64,000 bases of DNA. Origin: an uncultured Lachnospiraceae bacterium (GTDB lineage: Bacteria; Bacillota; Clostridia; Lachnospirales; Lachnospiraceae). The notes beneath the pieces were generated by a model that was not told where the DNA came from, made no database searches, and saw nothing but the letters and a program-made list of their open reading frames with translations. Of this stretch, positions 35,896-54,805 are shown piece after piece. Position numbers and translations under genes: made by a program. Each line of letters opens with the position of its first letter. Positions within the stretch are counted from its first letter, which is position 1. The stretch spans positions 7,119 to 71,118 of the forward strand of contig CACZJZ010000018.1 in assembly GCA_902781655.1 (NCBI GenBank). The letters are read 5' to 3'.

Positions 35896-35969
35896 CGAGG
35901 TGTGGCTCAGTCTGGTAGAGCGCCTGGTTTGGGACCAGGATGTCGCAGGTTCGAATCCTGTCACCTCGA
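35896..35969 (+). tRNA. tRNA-Pro(TGG)
   Basis: CGAGGTG/CACCTCG stem; CCTGG-TT-TGG-GA-CCAGG. Confidence 0.95.
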
Positions 35970-36030
35970 TTTCGCGTAGGAAATTCACAAAAGAGCGTTC
36001 CTCAGCGAGAGCGCCCGGTCATGTATTTAT

Positions 36031-36101
36031 GCGGGTGTAGTTCAATGGTAGAACACTAGCCTTCCAAGCTAGATACGTGGGTTCGATTCCCATCACCCGC
36101 T
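36031..36101 (+). tRNA. tRNA-Gly(TCC)
   Basis: GCGGGTG/CACCCGC stem; CTAGC-CT-TCC-AA-GCTAG. Confidence 0.95.
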
Positions 36102-36106
36102 CTTTT

Positions 36107-36180
<74 letters not shown>

Positions 36181-36203
36181 CGAGCCGTAAGGCCCACACA
36201 TAT

Positions 36204-36278
36204 GGTGGGTGTGGCGCAGTTGGTTAGCGCGCCAGATTGTGGTTCTGGAGATCGTGGGTTCGAGTCCCACTACCCACC
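36204..36278 (+). tRNA. tRNA-His(GTG)
   Basis: CCAGA-TT-GTG-GT-TCTGG anticodon arm. Confidence 0.93.
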
Positions 36279-36365
36279 CTTGTCTCGGTAAGGTTCCGAA
36301 AGGTTCTTTCGGAACCTTTTTCCGGAGAAAGAGCTCCGGTTGCAGCCCGGTGCTTATATTTGCAA

Positions 36366-36438
36366 TGGGCTATAGCCAAGGGGCTAAGGCATGAGATTTT
36401 GATTCTCACATTCGCCGGTTCGAATCCGGCTAGCCCAG
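36366..36438 (+). tRNA. tRNA-Gln(TTG)
   Basis: TGGGCTA/TAGCCCA stem; TGAGA-TT-TTG-AT-TCTCA. Confidence 0.93.
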
Positions 36439-36441
36439 CAT

Positions 36442-36514
36442 GGGGCATTAGCTCAGTCGGTAGAGCACTTGACTTTTAATCAAGTTGTCGCGGGTTCGAT
36501 TCCCGCATGCCTCA
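36442..36514 (+). tRNA. tRNA-Lys(TTT)
   Basis: CTTGA-CT-TTT-AA-TCAAG anticodon arm. Confidence 0.95.
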
Positions 36515-36524
36515 GTTTTCAAAG

Positions 36525-36692: not shown

Positions 36693-36724
36693 GAAGCCCC
36701 TCGCAGAGGGGCTGGTATTGAAAT
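36693..36724 (+). CRISPR. Solitary CRISPR-like repeat, copy 1 (type I-C architecture)
   Basis: GAAGCCCCTCGCAGAGGGGCTGGTATTGAAAT: 32 nt, hairpin at positions 4-20, 3' end ATTGAAAT. No cas genes in the window. Confidence 0.55.
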
Positions 36725-37164
36725 CTTGAAGCGTTTAACACAAAGGGTGCGCTGAAAGTCCGCTCTGCCCTGCTCAGATACACCGCGGAGAAATACCAGG
36801 GAGACGAGCTTATCCGGAGCGTGGAGAAATATCAGGATGCCTATACCGCAGTGGAAAAGACGAAAACGGTAAGTGCTGCCATGGGCGAGATGATGAATGA
36901 CGCCATGTCCGGCATTTTCTCATCGAAGGAAGGCATTCATGATCTTTCAGAATGGCTGAATAAAAAGCAGGGCGTAAAGGAACAGAAATCAGTTCTCGGA
37001 ACGCTGGCGGACCATTTCAGGGGAATAGAGACCGCCATGCGTAATCTGCTCAACAGGGGCACTCTGACTTCATCCGGGCGCCATGCTGCCATGATCGCAG
37101 AGAAGAATGCATCGAAGATCCGGAAGATGATTCTGGACGAGATGGATGTGGCAATCGAAAATGC
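36693..37164 (+). repeat. 472-bp direct repeat (repeat unit plus constant coding block C1), copy 1; copy 2 at 40926-41397
   Basis: Manual alignment gives about 17 substitutions, mostly at third codon positions. Confidence 0.95.
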
Positions 37165-38012
37165 GCAGAATGCGTCGCTGGATGAGAACGCGAAGAGTTC
37201 TGCAGCATATTCAGTCGGCGATTATGTTTTCGGACAAAAATCCTATACGTATGATGCAAAGAACAATGAGTTTGTATCGGATGATGGCCGGATTATCCCA
37301 GTGGCGGACAAAATTTTCTCTGTTAGCGATATAAAGAATGCAGAATACATTGTTCGTGAATTAGTTGCTGATCGAAAAGGTCCGCATATCGAGGAGATTT
37401 TCTAAAAAATATACCCACAACGGATTTATGAAATACGCGCCAGCAAAAGATAAGTCTGTCAAGATGAACATGTCTGCTGATGTGACCGACCTTATCGAGA
37501 ATGCAACCGGACTACGGCATGAACCTGATAAGAATGGGAAACATGGTGTATTCGCTGGAAGAGGATGGAATTATTATGACGCAGATATTGCTGTAAAGTT
37601 CAGAAACGAGTATCAGATATTCCGATCGGAGCTGCAAATAGCGTTATGTTTATGATATAAAGAATCCAAAAAAATCTCATCATGGGGTGCGGCTACTTCG
37701 GAAAATCCTTCTGCCTCACTGACTGGGAAGCCAGCTTTACGCCCCATGAGAGATTTATCTGCTAATAGTGTAGTGCAAGAAAGCAATGAAGTCAATGCAA
37801 AGCAGGATTATCAGGAGATCGAGGATAGTGTTCCGGATGTCAAACGCTTCTCCATCGATGTAGACCATACGGTCCAGCAGACGAAAGACCTGATTGCTGT
37901 TCACAACCTCAATGAGGAGAACCTGCGGTTTTCTATCAATATCAGCGATGCTGAAAAGAAGCAGATTTTTTTGCTACAAAAAATGGAAATGAGATAATTA
38001 TTTATATCGGCC
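36725..38012 (+). pseudogene. Cassette 1: polyvalent-protein fragment (C1 + frameshifted LPD3/BECR-like domain + J)
   Basis: ORF pieces 36821-37405, 37365-37655 and 37746-37997. DLIENAT...KH...GWNYYD and YVYDIK motifs are split across frames. Confidence 0.7.
37872..37969 (+). repeat. 98-bp identical repeat (junction block J); second copy at 42194-42291
   Basis: GTCCAGCAGACGAAAGACC...GAAGCAGATTTT. Its 5' half also matches 39069 onward and its 3' half resembles 40418-40441. Confidence 0.95.
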
Positions 38013-38224
38013 ACGCTGGCGGACCATTTCAGGGGAATAGAGACCGCCATGCGTAATCTGCTCAACAGGGGAACTCTGACTTCATCCGGGCGCCATGCTG
38101 CCATGATCGCGGAGAAGAATGCATCGAAGATCCGTAAGATGATTCTGGACGAGATGGATACTGCTATTGAGAATGCGCAGAATGCGAAGGTCGATGAGAA
38201 CGCGAAGAGCTCGGCGGCATATTC
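38013..38224 (+). repeat. Partial third copy of C1 (matches 37001-37212)
   Basis: ACGCTGGCGGACCATTTCAGGGG...GCATATTC. Confidence 0.93.
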
Positions 38225-40925
38225 TCTCACAAATAAGGACGATTATGCGATCTTCCTTTATCAGAATAATGATGAACAGAAGAGAGACGAGAGGCTAAGA
38301 GATACAAGTATAAAAATAGAAAATGCGAATAATGAAAACTATTCACAGCTTACTAAAGGTCAACTTTCGTCTATCGTGAATGCAAGATCGTTAAAAGAGA
38401 TTGAGAATATTTTCAAAAATTACTGCGGGAAAATAAAAATATGGGGAACGCAGTTCCGCTCTCCTGAACTCGATTTTGAATATGGATTTTCTGTCGGCGC
38501 ATTGCATGAAAGCGTACACAAGCAATCATTAATTAAAACTGGTAGTGAGGAAAATAACAAATTTTTAGCTCTTGCCAAAGCGATTGCGTCTGCAAATAGT
38601 ATCACAAGCAACGCAAAGTTACTTGAGATGCATACGGACCAGGATTATGCGAAAAGCATTGAGCCGAATCACAAAGTAAATTCTAATATTAAATATACTT
38701 ACGAGCTTATTTCCGGCTATATAGATGGGGAAAATATAGTTCCAGTAAAGATTACAGTTAAGGAATATTTAGAAAGAGCGAATACACCAAATATGATGTA
38801 TGTCCTTGAATCATTACCTGCAATAAATAAGGACAGCATCACTATGAAGGCCATCCCTGACATGAATCAGGGAAGACGCGACACTCCGCTGTCCGATAAC
38901 TATAGTTTAGCAGACATTCTTAGCGTTATCAAGAATAGCGCAGCTGATGACGAACGGCTTGATAAGGCAGTCGGCAGATATATTCCCGATCAGTTTGCCA
39001 ATACAACAAAATCATTAACTGAGAATATCCCGACTAAAGCAAAGTTGTCCATTGATGTAGACCAGCCTGTCCAGCAGACGGAAGACCTGATTGCTGTTCA
39101 CAACCTTGACGAGGAGAAACTGCTTGCCGACATCAACGAGCTTGGCGGCTTCCCTGCTCCATCCATTGCTATCATCCGGCAGGGGATGGAACACAATGGA
39201 TATGGGGATATTTCAGTTCTGTTCGAGAAGGACACGATCGACCCGGAACGCAGCAAGTACAACCATGTGTATGGTGGGGATGCGTGGACACCTACATTCC
39301 CGTCCGTTGAGTACGACATCAATAACGATGTTTTTTATAAGGCCAGAGAGAAATTCAAAGCTCTTAAGGGCAGAATCCTGTCTTATCTTTATGAGGAGGC
39401 GCTGCGGGTCAACAATAACGGAACAGGAAACGTCGAATATTCTGGTATGGATAGCTTTGTTCAGAAGATGGAGCAGAACTACGGAATCCGTGCTGCATAT
39501 GTCGCTTCAAAGGGCATTCAAATTGATGACAATGCGAAGCGGACGGAAGTTGGCAAATATGATGATAGCGAAGTAAAGGCGTTCGAGGCAGAGCGCAATA
39601 CCCTGAGTCATATCGGCGTTACGGGCGAAGAGCTTCGCGAAATGCCGGTTAATCAAGTAAAACAGGAATACGGGGATCTTAGACTCCAGGCATATCAGGA
39701 TAGGGCCAATACCATGGACAAGAAGAAAGCGGAACGGTTCATGGAGAAAGCAAAATCCAATTATGATGGCCCGGTCTTCGTGTTCAGAAACATGGTGGAT
39801 AGCATTGCCAATGCGTTGGATTATTACAAAAATGGAAATCCGACGCATACAGAATATGAACGCGATGAGAATGCTATCCGGGAGAAAATTGATTCGAATA
39901 TCAATGAGAAGGACCTTGAAAGCTGGATCAGGGACACCTATGAGGGCCTTGTTGGGAATAAAGGTATCTCTAATGGGGTGGACCCGTATACTCCATCCGG
40001 TAACCGGAGGGGCTTCCGTGCAACACATTATGCATTCATTCTTGATAATGTTGTCCGCGCTATGAGAGAACAGCAGGCCGAAAAAGGAGCTAACGCGTTT
40101 GCTGAAACCGGATTTACTGCTGTATCTACGAAGGATTTCAAGAATATCGATGATATTCACGCAAATGAAGATCCGATACAGAGCCTTTCGGAAGAGGAAT
40201 ATAAGAGCCTGCGAAAGAACATAGACGACAAGGTAGATGAAATTGCAAACTTGAGGCAAAGCCGATGCGGGCCGTCGGTCTGGAAGAAATTGCGGACGTA
40301 ATTGCTCCGGATACTGTCTCTGACGAACTGAAGCAGGCACTTGAGAGCAATAACATTCCGTATGAACTGTACAAGGCAGGAGACAACGCAGACCGTACAC
40401 TGAAGATGAATGCGCATGAAAATCTGCGGTTCTCAATCAATGTTGATAATGAAGGAAACCAGCTGAGCCATGACCAGAAGAACTATTTCAAGAATTCAAA
40501 AGTCCGTGATGATGAAGGAAATCTTCTTGTTATGTATCATGGTACTCCGCAGGGCGGCTTCACAAAGTTCCGTAACGGTCTCACTTATTATTTCACAAGT
40601 AACCCAGAATATGCACAGGAGTATGAAGGAAAGAATCCCCAGCGCGGACAGCAGAGCAATCCTCAGATTTATAAGGTATATCTGAATATTACTCATCCGT
40701 TTGATACCAGAAATGCTGCTGACCGGAAACTGTTCATAAATCAGTATGCGAAGGGAGGATATGCCCTTGGCATTGACCCATACAGCGGCGAGACAGGACT
40801 TTCAGAGAATGGACTTCCGGATTGGAATGAAGCAGATAACATTTATGATTTCCTTGAAGAAAATGACCTGCTCGATAAGTATGATGGTATGGTCATTGAT
40901 GAGGCAGGAAGCGCACGAGGCTCAG
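38013..40925 (+). pseudogene. Cassette 2: polyvalent-protein fragment (partial C1 + LPD3-like domain + LIAVHNL domain + truncated ART-like domain)
   Basis: ORFs 38049-40301 and 40265-40954, with a frame change at about 40250. Motifs LHESVHK...VPVKITVKEY; LIAVHNL...GGFPAPSIA...DAWTPTFP; YHGT...YYFT...VYLNITHP. Confidence 0.72.
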
Positions 40926-40957
40926 GAAGCCCCTCGCAGAGGGGCTGGTATTGAAAT
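40926..40957 (+). CRISPR. Solitary CRISPR-like repeat, copy 2 (identical 32-mer)
   Basis: Same 32 nt as 36693-36724, 4233 bp downstream. Confidence 0.55.
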
Positions 40958-40990
40958 CTTGAAGCGTTAAATACAAAGGGCGCGCTGAAA

Positions 40991-42670
40991 GTGCGCTCTG
41001 CCCTGCTCAGATACGCCGCGGAGAAATACCAGGGAGACGAGCTTATCAGGAGCGTGGAGAAATATCAGGATGCCTATACCGCGGTGGAAAAGACGAAAAC
41101 GGTAAGTGCTGCCATGGGCGAGATGATGAATGACGCCATGTCCGGCATTTTCTCATCGAAGGAAGGTATTCATGATCTTTCTGAATGGCTGGATAGGAAG
41201 CAGGGCGTAAAGGAACAGAAATCAGTTCTCGGCACGCTGGCGGACCATTTCAGGGGAATAGAGACCGCCATGCGTAATCTGCTCAACAGGGGCACTCTGA
41301 CTTCATCCGGGCGCCATGCTGCCATGATCGCGGAGAAGAATGCATCGAAGATCCGGAAGATGATTCTGGACGAGATGGATGTGGCCATAGAGAATGCAGC
41401 GAAAGCGAATGTGGTGGAAGGAGTTGGAGAAAACAAAGTATTTTCTCTCAAACAACAGGAGAAAACAAAATTAAGAGACAGAATAAATCTGGTAATGCAA
41501 GGCAGAAATTTTGAAAATGATATGGTATTTCTGAGAAATACTCCAAAAATATTGATTGATGAAATAGGACTTGAGGATATTCCAATGGCCATGACATCGA
41601 ATCATGTATATTCAGATATCGTAAGCAGAGAAGAAGCAATCAGAAATGGAAGATTCAAAGAGAAAGTAAATTATCACGACTTAGGAAAGTATGGGTTTAT
41701 ACATGCAATCGACAATCTGGATGATCCAATAATCATTGTAAAATCCAGAAACGAGGATGCAAACACAGATATTGTTGCTGTAACGGATACCATTGATAAA
41801 AATGGAAATACCGTACTGGCTGCAATTCGAGTGGGGAAAGAAGGTAACATTTCTGGAACGAGAACCTACATCAATGATATTGGAAGTGTTTATGGAAAGA
41901 AGAATACGATTATTGGATATATTGAGAATGCCTATAGCAAGGGGAGAATATTGTATTTGAACAAAATTAAAGCCAGAAATGAGAATGCACCCGGGTTCCA
42001 ATTACCCGACCGGATCCTCAACACTGGCTTTAAGTCAAATGTAGAACACTATAGGGACATTGTCAATAAAAAACGCATAAATAAACAAAATCAAAATACG
42101 ATAGCAAGCCAGAGAAAGGCAGAAAATGATATATCGAATAAAATCAATGATCTACCAGAAGAAAGACATTTCTCCCTTGATGTGGATGAGCCTGTCCAGC
42201 AGACGAAAGACCTGATTGCTGTTCACAACCTCAATGAGGAGAACCTGCGGTTTTCTATCAATATCAGCGATGCTGAAAAGAAGCAGATTTTAAATGAAGA
42301 GAAAAGACTTCAAAAGCAGATCGATAACTGGAATGGAATTGATGAGTCGATACATTTTGAGGTAGCAAAAACTCCGGATATTCTCAAGAACAAACTGAAT
42401 TTTGAATCTTTGTCCATAGAGATCGACTCTTCAAAGGTGAAGAAAATAAGTGTACAGAAGATAACGAGTACATACGCAAAAGAAAACGCCCAGCATATCC
42501 TTGATCAAAGCGATATTGAGTACGTTAATCAAGACAAAAAAATTACCATCAGCTGGCAGAAACTTACTAGGCTCCAATTGCCGTTCGTGAATCTGAATGC
42601 TGGTGGTTATAATAATACTTTATCACACAGTGCGAACATCAGCAATAACATTCAAACTCCCGGTTTATAA
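40991..42670 (+). CDS. Cassette 3: open polyvalent-protein fragment (C1 + MuF-C-like domain + J + internally deleted second MuF-C-like domain)
   Basis: 559-aa ORF with a GTG start. TPKILI..GLEDIPMAMT..H...HDLG...DPIIIVKS...NDIGSVYGK; later TPDILK and KITSTYAK...LQLP. Confidence 0.65.
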   Translation: MRSALLRYAAEKYQGDELIRSVEKYQDAYTAVEKTKTVSAAMGEMMNDAMSGIFSSKEGIHDLSEWLDRKQGVKEQKSVLGTLADHFRGIETAMRNLLNRGTLTSSGRHAAMIAEKNASKIRKMILDEMDVAIENAAKANVVEGVGENKVFSLKQQEKTKLRDRINLVMQGRNFENDMVFLRNTPKILIDEIGLEDIPMAMTSNHVYSDIVSREEAIRNGRFKEKVNYHDLGKYGFIHAIDNLDDPIIIVKSRNEDANTDIVAVTDTIDKNGNTVLAAIRVGKEGNISGTRTYINDIGSVYGKKNTIIGYIENAYSKGRILYLNKIKARNENAPGFQLPDRILNTGFKSNVEHYRDIVNKKRINKQNQNTIASQRKAENDISNKINDLPEERHFSLDVDEPVQQTKDLIAVHNLNEENLRFSINISDAEKKQILNEEKRLQKQIDNWNGIDESIHFEVAKTPDILKNKLNFESLSIEIDSSKVKKISVQKITSTYAKENAQHILDQSDIEYVNQDKKITISWQKLTRLQLPFVNLNAGGYNNTLSHSANISNNIQTPGL

Positions 42671-42777
42671 TGCAAGAGAAGCGGGATAAATCCCCCGGCG
42701 CGAATATCGCTGACATTAAGAATAATGCGGGATGATAATATAATATTATAGGGAAGGTCTCAGGCAGGAGAGAGGAT

Positions 42778-47787: not shown

Positions 47788-47854
47788 TTGTCCCTAACGA
47801 GTTTAGCTTGTTTGGTACAATTTGTACCAAACAAGCTAAACTCGTTAGGGACAA
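47788..47854. repeat. Perfect 67-bp palindrome (33-bp arms, 1-nt centre)
   Basis: TTGTCCCTAACGAGTTTAGCTTGTTTGGTACAA-T-TTGTACCAAACAAGCTAAACTCGTTAGGGACAA. Confidence 0.95.
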
Positions 47855-50743: not shown

Positions 50744-51172
50744 ATGAAGACATATATTCCCAGCGCTGCTGCCATCGAACGCAAATGGTATGTGGTTGAT
50801 GCGACTGATAAAACTCTTGGCCGTCTTGCATCTGAAGTGGCAAACGTCCTTCGCGGCAAGAACAAGCCGATTTATACTCCTTTTCTGGACTGCGGCGATT
50901 ACGTGATCGTGATCAACGCTTCCAAAATCAAGGTCACCGGAAAGAAGATGACCGACAAGATCTATTTCAAGCACACCGGATGGATCGGAAATGCAAAATA
51001 TGCGACTCTTCGTGAAATGCTCGAGAAGAAGCCCTGCAAGGTAATTGAGCATGCAGTAAAGGGCATGCTGCCGGGCGGTTCTCTTGGCGATCAGATGGGC
51101 AAGAAGCTGTATGTTTACGAGGGCGCTGAGTACAAGCAGGTTGCACAGAAGCCTGAGAAACTCGAGTTTTGA
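50744..51172 (+). CDS. rplM: 50S ribosomal protein L13
   Basis: RKWYVVDA...LGRLASEVA...KNKPIYTP...[10 protein letters not shown]. Confidence 0.97.
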
Positions 51173-51192
51173 TCGGAGAAGGAGATTAGACA

Positions 51193-51591
51193 ATGGCTAA
51201 AGCAGTTACGTATTATGGAACCGGCAGAAGAAAGTCTTCTGTTGCCAGAGTTTTCATGACCCCCGGTAAGGGAAACATCACGGTCAATGGCAAGTCTCTC
51301 GACGAGTATTTCGGACTTGAGACACTGAAGAGAATCGTTCTTCAGCCTCTTGCAGCGACCGGCACGGCGGATCAGTTCGATGTCAAGGTCACCGTAAAGG
51401 GCGGCGGCACGACCGGCCAGGCTGGCGCAGTTCGCCACGGCATTGCCCGTGCACTGAACGAGGCTGACAGAGAAGCCTACAGACCGATCCTGAAGAAAGA
51501 GGGATTCCTCACCAGAGATTCCCGCATGAAGGAAAGAAAGAAGTACGGCCTCAAGGCAGCTCGTCGCGCACCTCAGTTCAGCAAGAGATAA
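51193..51591 (+). CDS. rpsI: 30S ribosomal protein S9
   Basis: [10 protein letters not shown]; [19 protein letters not shown]. Confidence 0.97.
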
Positions 51592-51638
51592 TCGTTTCAC
51601 AACTTATTACGTCTTTGGACAATCATATACGATTTATT

Positions 51639-51671
51639 ACACCTCAGGACAACTGTTCTGGGGTGTTTTTT
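51639..51671 (+). terminator. Terminator after rpsI (inside the islet)
   Basis: ACACCTCAGGAC...GTTCTGGGGTGT stem plus T-run. Confidence 0.7.
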
Positions 51672-51787
51672 ATTACATTGAGATAATCACTAAAAATGTA
51701 GAATTCTACAATTTTATTGATTATGACAATATAAGGCGATAACATATAATTGACAAAAATGTAGAAGTCTACAATTTAGGAGATTAT

Positions 51788-53095
51788 ATGATAAAGCGAG
51801 ATAGATATCTGAATCAGTTGATCAATGCCAAAAATAATGGATTTCCGAAAGTGATAACAGGCGTAAGGAGATGCGGTAAGTCATTTCTTCTTAAAGAGAT
51901 ATATAGGGAGTACTTACTTTCAGAGAACATTCCAGAGAGTAGGATAATTATCTTGGAATTGGATGATGATAAAAACAGCAAGTATCGCGATCCTTTAGAA
52001 CTAGGAGCTTATATAAGGGAAAAATGCAAAGAAAAAGATAATTACTATGTTTTTATAGATGAAATACAGAAGGTATATTCTATAATCAATCCAAATTTCA
52101 CTGATGGTAAACATATTTTGGCTGATGCTAATAATACTGAAGTAATTTCATTCGTAGACGTTGTCCTTGGCCTATCAAGAGAAAAAAATATAGATTTATA
52201 TGTGACTGGATCAAATTCTAAAATGTTGTCTTCGGATATTGTTACTGAATTCAGAGATAAGGCAACAAACATAAAGCTGTCTCCACTGTCATTTGAAGAA
52301 TATTATGGATATGTCGGAGGATCAGCAACTGAAGCAATATATAAATATATGCAATACGGTGGAATGCCGTTAGCTGTATTAAAAAGCGACGAAGAGAGAA
52401 AAGAATATCTAAAGAGCTTGTTCGCTACGACATATTTCGCTGATATTGTTGAAAGAAATCAGTTGAAAAAAGGAGAGGCCTTGGATGAGCTCTGTAACAT
52501 AATTAGTTCTTCGACAGGCTCACTACTTAATTCAGAAAAAATAGCCAATACGTTTGAAAGTGTTAGACATGAAAAGATTGATAAGCAGACAGTTGAAAAC
52601 TATATTGGTTACTTTAAAGATGCATTCCTTTTGCGTGAGGCTAAACGTTATGACTTAAAGGGAAGAAAAGAAATAGGTGCTCTTAGAAAGTATTATTTTA
52701 TTGATACTGGTCTACGAAATGCTCGCCTGAATTTCGCTTTTCCAGATGAAGGTCAAATGCTTGAAAACATTGTTTATAATGAACTGTGTTATAATGGTTA
52801 TTCTGTTAATGTCGGTGCTTTTGACACTGTTGAAAAAGATAAAAATGGAAAATCTATAAGGAAAAATAATGAAGTGGATTTTTATGCCACTAAAGGGCTT
52901 AGATCTCTTTATATACAGGTGACTGCTGATATCTCTAATGCAGAAACAAGAGAAAGAGAAATACATCCTTATTTTAAGTTAAATGATCAAGTACAAAAGA
53001 TACTTGTTGTAAATAGACCGATTGGTGAAACACTAGATGAGAATGGATTCTTAATCATAGGGATTACTGAATTTTTATTGAAATATATCAAGTAA
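51788..53095 (+). CDS. AAA_14/DUF4143-type ATP-binding protein
   Basis: GVRRCGKS, FIDEIQ, VTGSNS, YGGMP, KYYFIDTGLRN, ENIVYNEL, EVDF...YIQV. Confidence 0.88.
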   Translation: MIKRDRYLNQLINAKNNGFPKVITGVRRCGKSFLLKEIYREYLLSENIPESRIIILELDDDKNSKYRDPLELGAYIREKCKEKDNYYVFIDEIQKVYSIINPNFTDGKHILADANNTEVISFVDVVLGLSREKNIDLYVTGSNSKMLSSDIVTEFRDKATNIKLSPLSFEEYYGYVGGSATEAIYKYMQYGGMPLAVLKSDEERKEYLKSLFATTYFADIVERNQLKKGEALDELCNIISSSTGSLLNSEKIANTFESVRHEKIDKQTVENYIGYFKDAFLLREAKRYDLKGRKEIGALRKYYFIDTGLRNARLNFAFPDEGQMLENIVYNELCYNGYSVNVGAFDTVEKDKNGKSIRKNNEVDFYATKGLRSLYIQVTADISNAETREREIHPYFKLNDQVQKILVVNRPIGETLDENGFLIIGITEFLLKYIK

Positions 53096-53385
53096 AATAA
53101 TATTACACAAAATGTTTGTTTATGCTAGGAGGAGCCAGCATCAACTATAACATCATAGGGTTTATGCTCAGTTATGGTATCATTTTTTATAGAAGTTCTG
53201 AAATCTGAATAGGGAGATAGTAGATGAAAAAGTTTACTAGAGTTGCCACCAGCCGCATACAGTAGCCCTGAGCTTTCTACCGTACGCAGCAGGTAAACGG
53301 CAACTCGCCTTACAAATGCCCAAAACAAGGCATTTAAGACAGTAAGAAAGTTCTCCAAGAGATAATCGAGAACAAGAGATCATCG

Positions 53386-53420
53386 AAAAAGCCCGGAAGT
53401 ACGCCATTTCCGGGCTTTTT
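53386..53420 (+). terminator. Terminator just outside the right att copy
   Basis: AAAAAGCCCGGAA...TTCCGGGCTTTTT. Confidence 0.75.
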
Positions 53421-53872
53421 CTTTACCCAAATCTCTTTGAAGCCTTTTCGAGACTTTTGAAGAAAAATCGCTCCGATTAAGTGGTTAATACTGGGGCAAC
53501 GATCTCTTAGTAGTTAATTTTTGGGGCACCACACGCGAAAATGCAGATCTGGAGCTATTAGAAAAATTGGAACCGGGAGAGGAACAAAATACCTGAAAAG
53601 CTAAGTCTGGATGATTCTAAGACGCAGGAACCGTCCCATACCATACGTGGAAAAGTGACATGGACCAGAGCAGGGAGTGGCATGCACCCGCAAGTTTACT
53701 TGCAGGGGTGCATGCCACTCTTGTTGTTTATAGCGCGCCAGCGCGACATGAGTCGGACGCGGAGCGGACGACGAAGAAAGTCGCGGGATTTAGGTTCCAT
53801 TTAGGAAGGCGCGGTATGCTCTCCTACAAGGCGGGGATAACCCGCTGGCAAAAGCGGGACAGGAGGCACAGG

Positions 53873-54805
53873 ATGGGCGGATTTCAGGACACATTCCAGA
53901 GAAAAGAGATCAAATATATTCTGAACGCAGCGCAGTATCGGGAAATGCTCCGCTGGCTTCAGCCGATTGCGAGGGTGGATTCCTACGGCGAGACCACGAT
54001 TCAGAACATATATTTTGACACGCCGGATTTCCGGCTGGTGCGCAGCTCTATGGAGAAGCCTCTGTACAAGGAGAAGCTGCGGCTCCGCACGTATGGAATT
54101 CCGGAAGTTGGTTCTACCGCGTTCATTGAAATCAAGAAGAAGTATCACGGTGTGGTGTATAAGCGGAGAATCGGCATGCCATACGGAGAAGCGCTGCGGG
54201 TGCTGTGTCATGGAGAGCTGGAGCGCCTGCTGGGAATGGCCCGGGCACAGCGGAGACTGGAAGAACAGGCGCAGAATGACAGGTACACCGAAGCGCAGAT
54301 CGCGGAGGAGATCGCCTGGTTCTGCAGGGTGCATCGCCCGCTTCTTCCCGCGATGAAGATCCGGTACGACCGGATCGCGATGGTGGGCATCGCGGACCCG
54401 TCGCTCCGGATCACGTTTGACCGGAATCTGCGGTGGTCGATGCATCTGGACCTGCGGGATGCCGCGGAAGGAGAAGCGCTGTTACAGCCGCAGCAGGCTC
54501 TGATGGAGATCAAAATACAGGGCGCGATACGTCCGGATATTGCGCATATACTGAGCGGGCTGGGTGTATATCCGGCATCCTTTTCCAAGTATGGCGAAGG
54601 CTTTGCGCAATATTACGAGGATGCGCGGCGAAGCCGCCGCACCTTATCCTGGCTGGCGGAGCGGGCCTGGCAGAACGCCCGGGATACCTTCGGGCGTCCG
54701 GCGTGCGATCACGATGATCCGGAAGTGCCAGGGCAGAGCGGCGGCAATCTGGAGAACAGATGGCAGCAGCAGACACAGAGAACAGGAGGTCTTATCTATG
54801 CTTAA
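53873..54805 (+). CDS. VTC (polyphosphate polymerase/CYTH-like) domain protein
   Basis: RKEIKY, IYFDTPD, EKLRLRTY, EIKKK, YDRIA, RITFD, MEIK, FSKY; AGGAGG RBS. Confidence 0.88.
   Translation: MGGFQDTFQRKEIKYILNAAQYREMLRWLQPIARVDSYGETTIQNIYFDTPDFRLVRSSMEKPLYKEKLRLRTYGIPEVGSTAFIEIKKKYHGVVYKRRIGMPYGEALRVLCHGELERLLGMARAQRRLEEQAQNDRYTEAQIAEEIAWFCRVHRPLLPAMKIRYDRIAMVGIADPSLRITFDRNLRWSMHLDLRDAAEGEALLQPQQALMEIKIQGAIRPDIAHILSGLGVYPASFSKYGEGFAQYYEDARRSRRTLSWLAERAWQNARDTFGRPACDHDDPEVPGQSGGNLENRWQQQTQRTGGLIYA

Follow-up and report, generated by a model that had tools for sequence, protein, structure and literature searches.

The chromosome of an uncultured Lachnospiraceae bacterium carries two complete copies of a type I-C CRISPR repeat that is identical to the repeat of another organism, and both copies bound kilobase-long fragments of phage genes that begin or end exactly at the edges of the repeat. 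We judge it somewhat more probable than all other readings together that phage DNA took the place of a spacer beside such a repeat, was copied and later exchanged patches with phages, and that the differences between the two copies of the phage sequence, including four in the first 36 nt after the repeat, are standing polymorphism of the phages rather than mutations acquired in place or traces of escape from CRISPR immunity.

The window, by which we mean the whole 64,000-nt stretch that was analysed (part of contig C18 of genome G000), is bacterial chromosomal DNA of ~58% GC, into which an island of 41-47% GC is set on the forward strand from position 36694 to ~42656, the right border being approximate. 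The island was delimited by composition and by comparison with an empty site, and it is flanked by a tRNA array (Pro, Gly, Arg, His, Gln, Lys; 35896-36515) on one side and by truA (from 42778) on the other. The empty site is found in a genome of the same genus (G008), where tRNA-Lys, a terminator and a spacer of ~180 nt lead directly to the truA leader, and where homology with the window stops at 36693; the same empty-site sequence was also seen as loose ends in pig and sheep gut runs (X3, X5). The island has the appearance of a clean insertion, and the host DNA on either side shows no obvious loss or duplication. A possible degenerate terminal copy of the repeat near 42690 (GAAGC and another hairpin), which has no more than the first 5 nt in common with it and is placed in the host flank, was rejected by eye. 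In G008 itself, the tRNA-Gly gene (L004, ~2100-2160 on the minus-strand ruler) is apparently reduced to its 3' end (..acgattcccatcacccgctc), with the remaining tRNAs of the array intact. Elsewhere in the window, a repeat search returned a perfect palindrome of 67 nt (47788-47854; 33-nt arms with 1 nt between them), and a second low-GC stretch at 51000-54000, which reaches its minimum of 32.5% GC at 52001-53000 against ~58% around it, may be another foreign insert.

The coding content of the island consists entirely of pieces of the polyvalent proteins of phages and conjugative elements (Pfam LPD3, PBECR5, ART-PolyVal and MuF_C), with matches to phrog_22978. The family is represented by 147 homologues, mostly of 2500-4400 aa, that carry several LPD or effector domains, and our intact reference among these relatives is P0005, of 3492 aa. 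Equivalents of the polyvalent gene in this genome are limited to residues 1139-2036 of P0005 and all lie inside the island; no island fragment comes from upstream of residue 1139. As in the polyvalent proteins described by Iyer et al. (2017), a constant segment, which we call C1, is followed by a slot with varying effector domains, and this architecture accounts for all coding material of the island; unlike them, the island has no single giant ORF but three pieces, which are broken and in part duplicated. When compared with alleles from metagenomes, the island is without 47 nt at 37373, ~100 nt at 37594-37671 and 190 nt at 40250, and these three deletions, in places where related phage contigs of several metagenomes keep the sequence, break the frames of cassettes 1 and 2. 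Variant copies of the locus are held by sister assemblies (P0004, P0150), and an identical 559-aa product is recorded from three contigs of ~100 kb. In its present state the locus is probably a decaying relic. No close relatives of the island DNA were found in phage and plasmid records, no relatives of C1 were confirmed by peptide patterns in IMG/VR, GTDB species genomes or JGI metagenomes, and none were present in 400 genomes of the same order.

The first copy of the 32-nt repeat (GAAGCCCCTCGCAGAGGGGCTGGTATTGAAAT) occupies 36693-36724, its first base adjoining host DNA, and the second, identical to it, occupies 40926-40957, both on the forward strand; these are the only two copies in the genome and they lie 4233 nt apart. 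A search of 185,579 species genomes with a 25-nt core of the repeat returned one record, Lachnospiraceae bacterium YH-ros2226, in which the identical 32-mer forms a 49-unit array (spacing 63-67 nt, spacers 31-35 nt). Upstream of that array, in the same orientation, lie cas2 and an AT-rich leader, and a Cas8c/Csd1 gene is found on the same contig. Contigs with repeat-spacer-repeat order and this same repeat also occur in a bioreactor run (X2). The sequence folds into 2 nt, a stem of 8 bp with a 3-nt loop and an 11-nt tail (GGUAUUGAAAU) at -15.1 kcal/mol, which is the form of a type I-C repeat, i.e., a stem-loop followed by an 11-nt tail ending in ATTGAAA(C/T). Because an array of 49 identical units stands with cas2, a leader and Cas8c in YH-ros2226, the island 32-mer is a genuine type I-C CRISPR repeat. 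The island itself is not a CRISPR array, with two repeats 4233 nt apart and with the cas genes and array of the host located on contig C8. That system is also of type I-C (cas1, cas8c and an array of 61 repeats at the contig end) and has a different repeat (GTCGGGTCCCGCAAGGGACCTGTGGATTGAAAT), which folds in the same way as the island repeat (2 nt, 8-bp stem, 11-nt tail) and agrees with it at 9 of the 11 tail positions. Two spacers of the host array (C8:240-4266), at 2670 and 3001, are duplicates of one another with 97% identity, and a second host array of nine repeats (C26:4888-5520) has an unrelated 37-nt repeat.

The island repeat was not detected in IMG/VR contigs or in phage and plasmid records, and three matches of a 19-nt repeat core in viral contigs proved to be the same coding stretch without a hairpin and were put down to chance. 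No Rfam family covers the repeat region, and a promoter scan gave no promoter-like site upstream. A degenerate repeat 33-37 nt after each copy was considered and rejected, with 10 of 32 matches by hand count, and the range 31-37 nt downstream held none either. The first repeat contains an in-frame TGA at 36719-36721, and the idea that recoding of TGA as Trp would open a frame through the repeat was also discarded, since a suppressor tRNA is absent among the eight tRNAs and translation table 4 merges or spoils the flanking host genes. On a metagenome contig (OCVV011244822.1; L014:436-467, minus strand) the 32-nt repeat stands alone, with 35 nt after it and no further repeat behind them, at ~150 nt from an IS21-family element (an IstA-like transposase and IstB); it resembles the remainder of an array that an insertion sequence has cut.

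Directly after the first repeat, at 36725-37165, lies copy A of C1, whose 147 codons match residues 1139-1285 of P0005 at 146 of 147 amino acids and phrog_22978 at 1014-1180; its first 12 codons (36725-36760; LEAFNTKGALKV) have no start codon near them, the codon at 36758 being GTC, and blastx alignments to intact proteins begin exactly at 36725. Copy B of C1 (40958-41398) stands in the same position after the second repeat, and its first 36 nt (40958-40993; LEALNTKGALKV), at which both blastx and the match to a phage contig begin, include a possible start codon, GTG at 40991, from which an open frame of 559 aa with a MuF_C domain (40991-42670) extends. A third, partial copy, with the 3' half only and no repeat ahead of it, lies at 38013-38224 (repeat family D1, 92% identity to copy A). 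Ahead of the second repeat an ORF for an ART-PolyVal fragment (40265-40954; Pfam PF18760) ends in a stop codon, TGA at 40952-40954, that lies inside the repeat. The order in intact relatives is C1, a variable slot, PBECR5 and further modules. In one intact homologue, P0006, the ART domain follows C1 directly (residues 1214-1380, with a counterpart at 40376-40882 of the window), and the slot after C1 would thus take ART, LPD3, MuF_C or other modules, depending on the allele. Cassettes 1 and 3 share an internal scar, in which ...HNLNEENL is joined directly to RFSINISDAEKKQI, where cassette 2 has a full PBECR5 domain. The products P0002 and P0149 both begin at the GTG codon 12 residues into C1, which hints that units of repeat and C1 exist in other, diverged contexts.

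Related phage contigs from four metagenome studies (runs X2, X3, X4 and X5) were compared with the island around the repeats. On the ART side, contigs from X2, X3 and X5 match over 3037, 1818 and 1250 nt, respectively, and in each case the match stops at 40925 and the contig itself continues. On the C1 side, a match from X2 starts exactly at 40958, in a phage contig of 6928 nt that has 5754 nt upstream of this point, the matches from X4 and X5 start at 40964, and one from X3 starts at 36731, with 1497 nt upstream; blastx alignments to intact proteins start at 36725 and 40958. The repeat is absent at both positions from the related phage contigs of the four metagenomes. The boundaries are exact, at 36724/36725, 40925/40926 and 40957/40958, with host DNA at 36693, and because the phage contig matches stop precisely at the repeat edges, each repeat junction is a breakpoint. 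Intact proteins continue uninterrupted across the cut, with ...HEG(M/V)GEV before it and LEAFN... after it, and the HE..GE motif ahead of the cut is conserved across the family, from which it follows that the repeat stands in place of the upstream portion of a conserved domain. Moreover, since the natural order is C1, slot and PBECR5, with ART placed after C1, the succession of ART, repeat and C1 in the island is not a natural adjacency.

The preliminary description of this locus drew attention to variation between the two C1 copies, and most of what it reported holds on formal comparison. In an ungapped register (offset 4233) the stretches 36725-36760 and 40958-40993 differ at 36736 (T/A), 36739 (C/T), 36748 (T/C) and 36760 (C/G), i.e., at four third-codon positions in the frame from 36725, as had been stated; three of the four changes are synonymous, and the other, TTT to TTA, replaces F with L. 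Counted from the repeat, they fall at +12, +15, +24 and +36, and over the first 11 nt the copies do not differ. The estimate of about 13 further differences in the next 404 nt was correct (exactly 13 at 36761-37164), the 32 nt of the repeat have none (36693-36724 against 40926-40957), and the 3' border is divergent, from ~37153. The statement that the variation is codon-aware and mostly synonymous is likewise borne out, with 14 synonymous differences against 4 non-synonymous ones in the 147 codons of C1. By the method of Nei and Gojobori, dS between copies A and B is 0.156 and dN 0.012 (dN/dS 0.076; binomial P 1e-6 against neutrality), and for the third, partial copy dN/dS is 0.09-0.10 against A and against B.

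Such low values in fragments that are now broken argue that the copies diverged when the frame was still a functional gene under selection, i.e., in phages. This agrees with the earlier proposal that the copies are naturally diverged phage alleles and not the product of drift after duplication, as does the recurrence of their variants in public proteins. The residues D79 and R80 of copy B are common to P0002, P0149 and P0150, whereas L4 and A20 are private to copy B. Both types of 3' border (QNA..DENAK and AAKA..VEG) are also seen, differently combined, in other public proteins, which points to recombination among alleles. In P0150, the equivalent of copy A in a sister assembly, D-R stands where the window has N-K. 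Judged by these patterns of shared residues, natural alleles are combined in the copies as a mosaic, and the copies have also exchanged sequence with each other.

For the origin of the locus we favor, with a confidence a little above even, a history in which phage DNA would have joined a type I-C array once, at the boundary of a repeat and a spacer, through a spacer that matched it and allowed recombination, or else because spacer integration went wrong. The unit of repeat and C1 would then have come into this chromosome and been duplicated, and afterwards homologous recombination, both between the copies and with infecting phages, may have swapped patches of C1 and replaced the variable interiors; the polymorphism between the copies arose under purifying selection on the protein. 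Since both copies start at the same mid-domain breakpoint right after a complete foreign repeat, the phage DNA stands where a spacer would. Both the way in which the junction was made and the sequence of a single origin followed by duplication are reconstructions, the latter favored because cassettes 1 and 3 share not only the junction of repeat and C1 but also the unrelated internal scar.

Recombination between spacers and protospacers is known from phages and CRISPR arrays (Varble et al. 2019, Nat Microbiol 4:956, as summarised in PMC8616872). According to that summary, a crossover inside a spacer that matches the phage gives exact repeat boundaries. The same boundaries would be given by integration chemistry at the repeat ends. 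The island resembles the products of such recombination in that its phage sequence abuts the repeat exactly where a spacer would begin or end, so that phage homology starts or stops at a repeat boundary. It differs from them in that it lies in a chromosome with a different repeat of its own, has no adjacent leader or cas genes and shows the arrangement twice, and in that its fragments are kilobases long and decayed. A further difference, which counts against our main reading, is that no spacer identical to 36725-36758 or 40892-40925 was present among 48 spacers of the YH-ros2226 array (the one reference array), five from X2 and 68 of the host, and comparison of these spacers with the island and 150 homologous proteins gave nothing beyond chance. 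The usual PAM of type I-C systems is TTC. That the codon before C1 in intact relatives is GTN (Val) and not TTC also counts against the reading. The proposed origin gives no account of the clean placement between tRNA-Lys and truA, where the left border coincides with the first base of the repeat, and differences as close as 12 nt to the junction are awkward for an exchange of patches with phages that lack the repeat.

Solitary CRISPR repeats that match the CRISPR subtype of the host are known in prophages, and RacrIC1, for example, lies 11 nt after an acr gene in the same transcript (Camara-Wilpert et al. 2023, PMC10651486). By analogy, the two island repeats could have been the solitary repeats of a mobile element that act as Racr-like RNA anti-CRISPR decoys and soak up Cas proteins, with C1 as a passenger whose variation has nothing to do with the repeat. 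We regard this as improbable, yet it is the strongest of the alternatives. The island does have single I-C repeats outside an array, in phage-derived DNA of a host with a type I-C system, and the host repeat has the same geometry, with 9 of 11 tail bases equal; the second copy, in addition, stands directly at the end of an ORF of a counter-defense type, overlapping the end of the ART-PolyVal frame. A Racr unit, however, is borne by the element, intergenic, placed behind a promoter and expressed as a small RNA, whereas here the repeat is missing at both positions from the phage relatives in four metagenomes, a conserved domain is cut by the gene breakpoints on its two flanks, an ORF end is overlapped and no promoter-like site was found upstream. 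Also unfavorable are the absence of the repeat from IMG/VR contigs and from phage and plasmid records, and its complete identity to the repeat in the array of another organism and not to that of the host.

A somewhat less probable alternative, which we consider unlikely, is that two phage alleles were each joined to the repeat independently at the same nucleotide, in which case the differences from +12 onwards would predate capture. Pieces of phage genes would have been captured into I-C spacer positions as kilobase-long "mega-spacers," either by adaptation proteins that inserted untrimmed DNA or by one spacer that recombined twice, and a fragment of the array would have moved to another chromosome, where it would still recombine with incoming phages. 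The room for two captures comes from the differences near the junction, which are all at third positions, with three of three such changes upstream of the GTG that is the only possible start. It is also in keeping with this alternative that every island fragment starts at or after residue 1139, and that both edges of the second repeat and the left edge of the first are exact repeat boundaries. Against it are the shared deletion scar of cassettes 1 and 3, which is unrelated to the junction and indicates a common ancestor, the lack of a TTC codon before C1 in close relatives and the identity of the first 11 nt in both copies. We know of no case of kilobase-long spacer insertion.

The part of the preliminary description that fared less well concerns the first 36 nt after the repeat, which were said to be dense in differences over the length of a guide. 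One-sided Fisher's test gives P 0.042 for these 36 nt against the next 404 nt, for a window that was picked after the data had been seen and whose last difference lies at its very end, +36. For windows of spacer length (33-35 nt; arrays with this repeat have spacers of 31-35 nt) there are three differences and P is 0.13-0.14, and for synonymous sites alone, in the first 12 codons against the rest, P is 0.11. The 36-nt window with the most differences, five, is another one, at 36929-36969, and when 17 differences are placed randomly in a block of 472 nt, some window of 36 nt holds at least four in 78% of trials. The excess is thus not beyond chance. At the protein level, the variability of the segment is that of the family as a whole: among 76 full-length homologues the first 12 residues of C1 have an entropy of 2.41 against a mean of 2.39 and rank 73 of 136 windows, which is the uniform picture that had been named beforehand as speaking against a special role.

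Escape from type I systems concentrates in the PAM and positions 1-8, and Cascade does not pair every sixth position of the target (here 12, 24 and 36). None of the four differences is in positions 1-8, three of the four are on multiples of six, as is expected of third codon positions in this register, and +36 is beyond any spacer of this repeat family. Since the copies agree throughout the first 11 nt and differ mostly, at three sites of four, on multiples of six, two "guides" of these sequences would be nearly equivalent, which is the opposite of what escape and guide updating would leave. The proposal that the differences record CRISPR escape followed by updating of a guide finds no footing in these data, with no significant excess, no seed differences and average family variability. 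It is accordingly very unlikely that the repeat and the ~36 nt after it make, or made, a working crRNA-like guide against phages with C1. Arguments in its favor are that the repeat is a real I-C repeat in sense orientation relative to the leader of the real array, that the host has type I-C cas genes and that the uncorrected Fisher value is below 0.05. Set against these are the lack of a closing repeat downstream within 4.2 kb, the failure of the scan to find a promoter and the GTN rather than TTC before the target in close relatives (Phe is the commonest residue just before C1 in the wider family), and 123 spacers were examined, none of which matched this gene family. In comparison with virus-borne mini-CRISPR arrays and crRNA-like RNAs (Medvedeva et al. 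2019; bioRxiv 10.1101/2024.10.29.618823), the island likewise has a repeat followed by sequence identical to a gene of related viruses, and could in principle guide Cas proteins against competitors; it differs in having no second repeat after the guide, no PAM evident in close relatives and a chromosomal rather than viral location.

Least probable of all is a chimera, in which the assembler threaded reads from an array and reads from a phage through short shared words: the assembly consists of 53 contigs and probably derives from a bovine gut metagenome, and at least one sample (X2) contains both related phages and arrays with this repeat, but the junction of host and repeat shares at most 1 nt, so that there is no k-mer path, the fragments have deletions and frameshifts that live phage alleles lack, and the 559-aa product is the same on all three of its ~100-kb contigs, with P0004 and P0150 as variant neighbors.

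In itself the pattern of differences in the first 36 nt after the repeat is ordinary, and what it does show is that the fragments still worked as phage genes at the time of their divergence. The setting is a natural case of phage DNA at the exact boundaries of complete CRISPR repeats, outside an array and in a host whose own I-C repeat is different, and with its complete foreign repeats bounding kilobase fragments of phage genes the locus is an unusual variant of known phenomena, either of recombination between repeats and phages or of solitary repeats. If the junctions go back to spacer-guided recombination or to faulty spacer integration, the locus would be a field record of the exchange of DNA between arrays and phages and of the origin of lone repeats, and the natural alleles that it holds could serve to date the steps.
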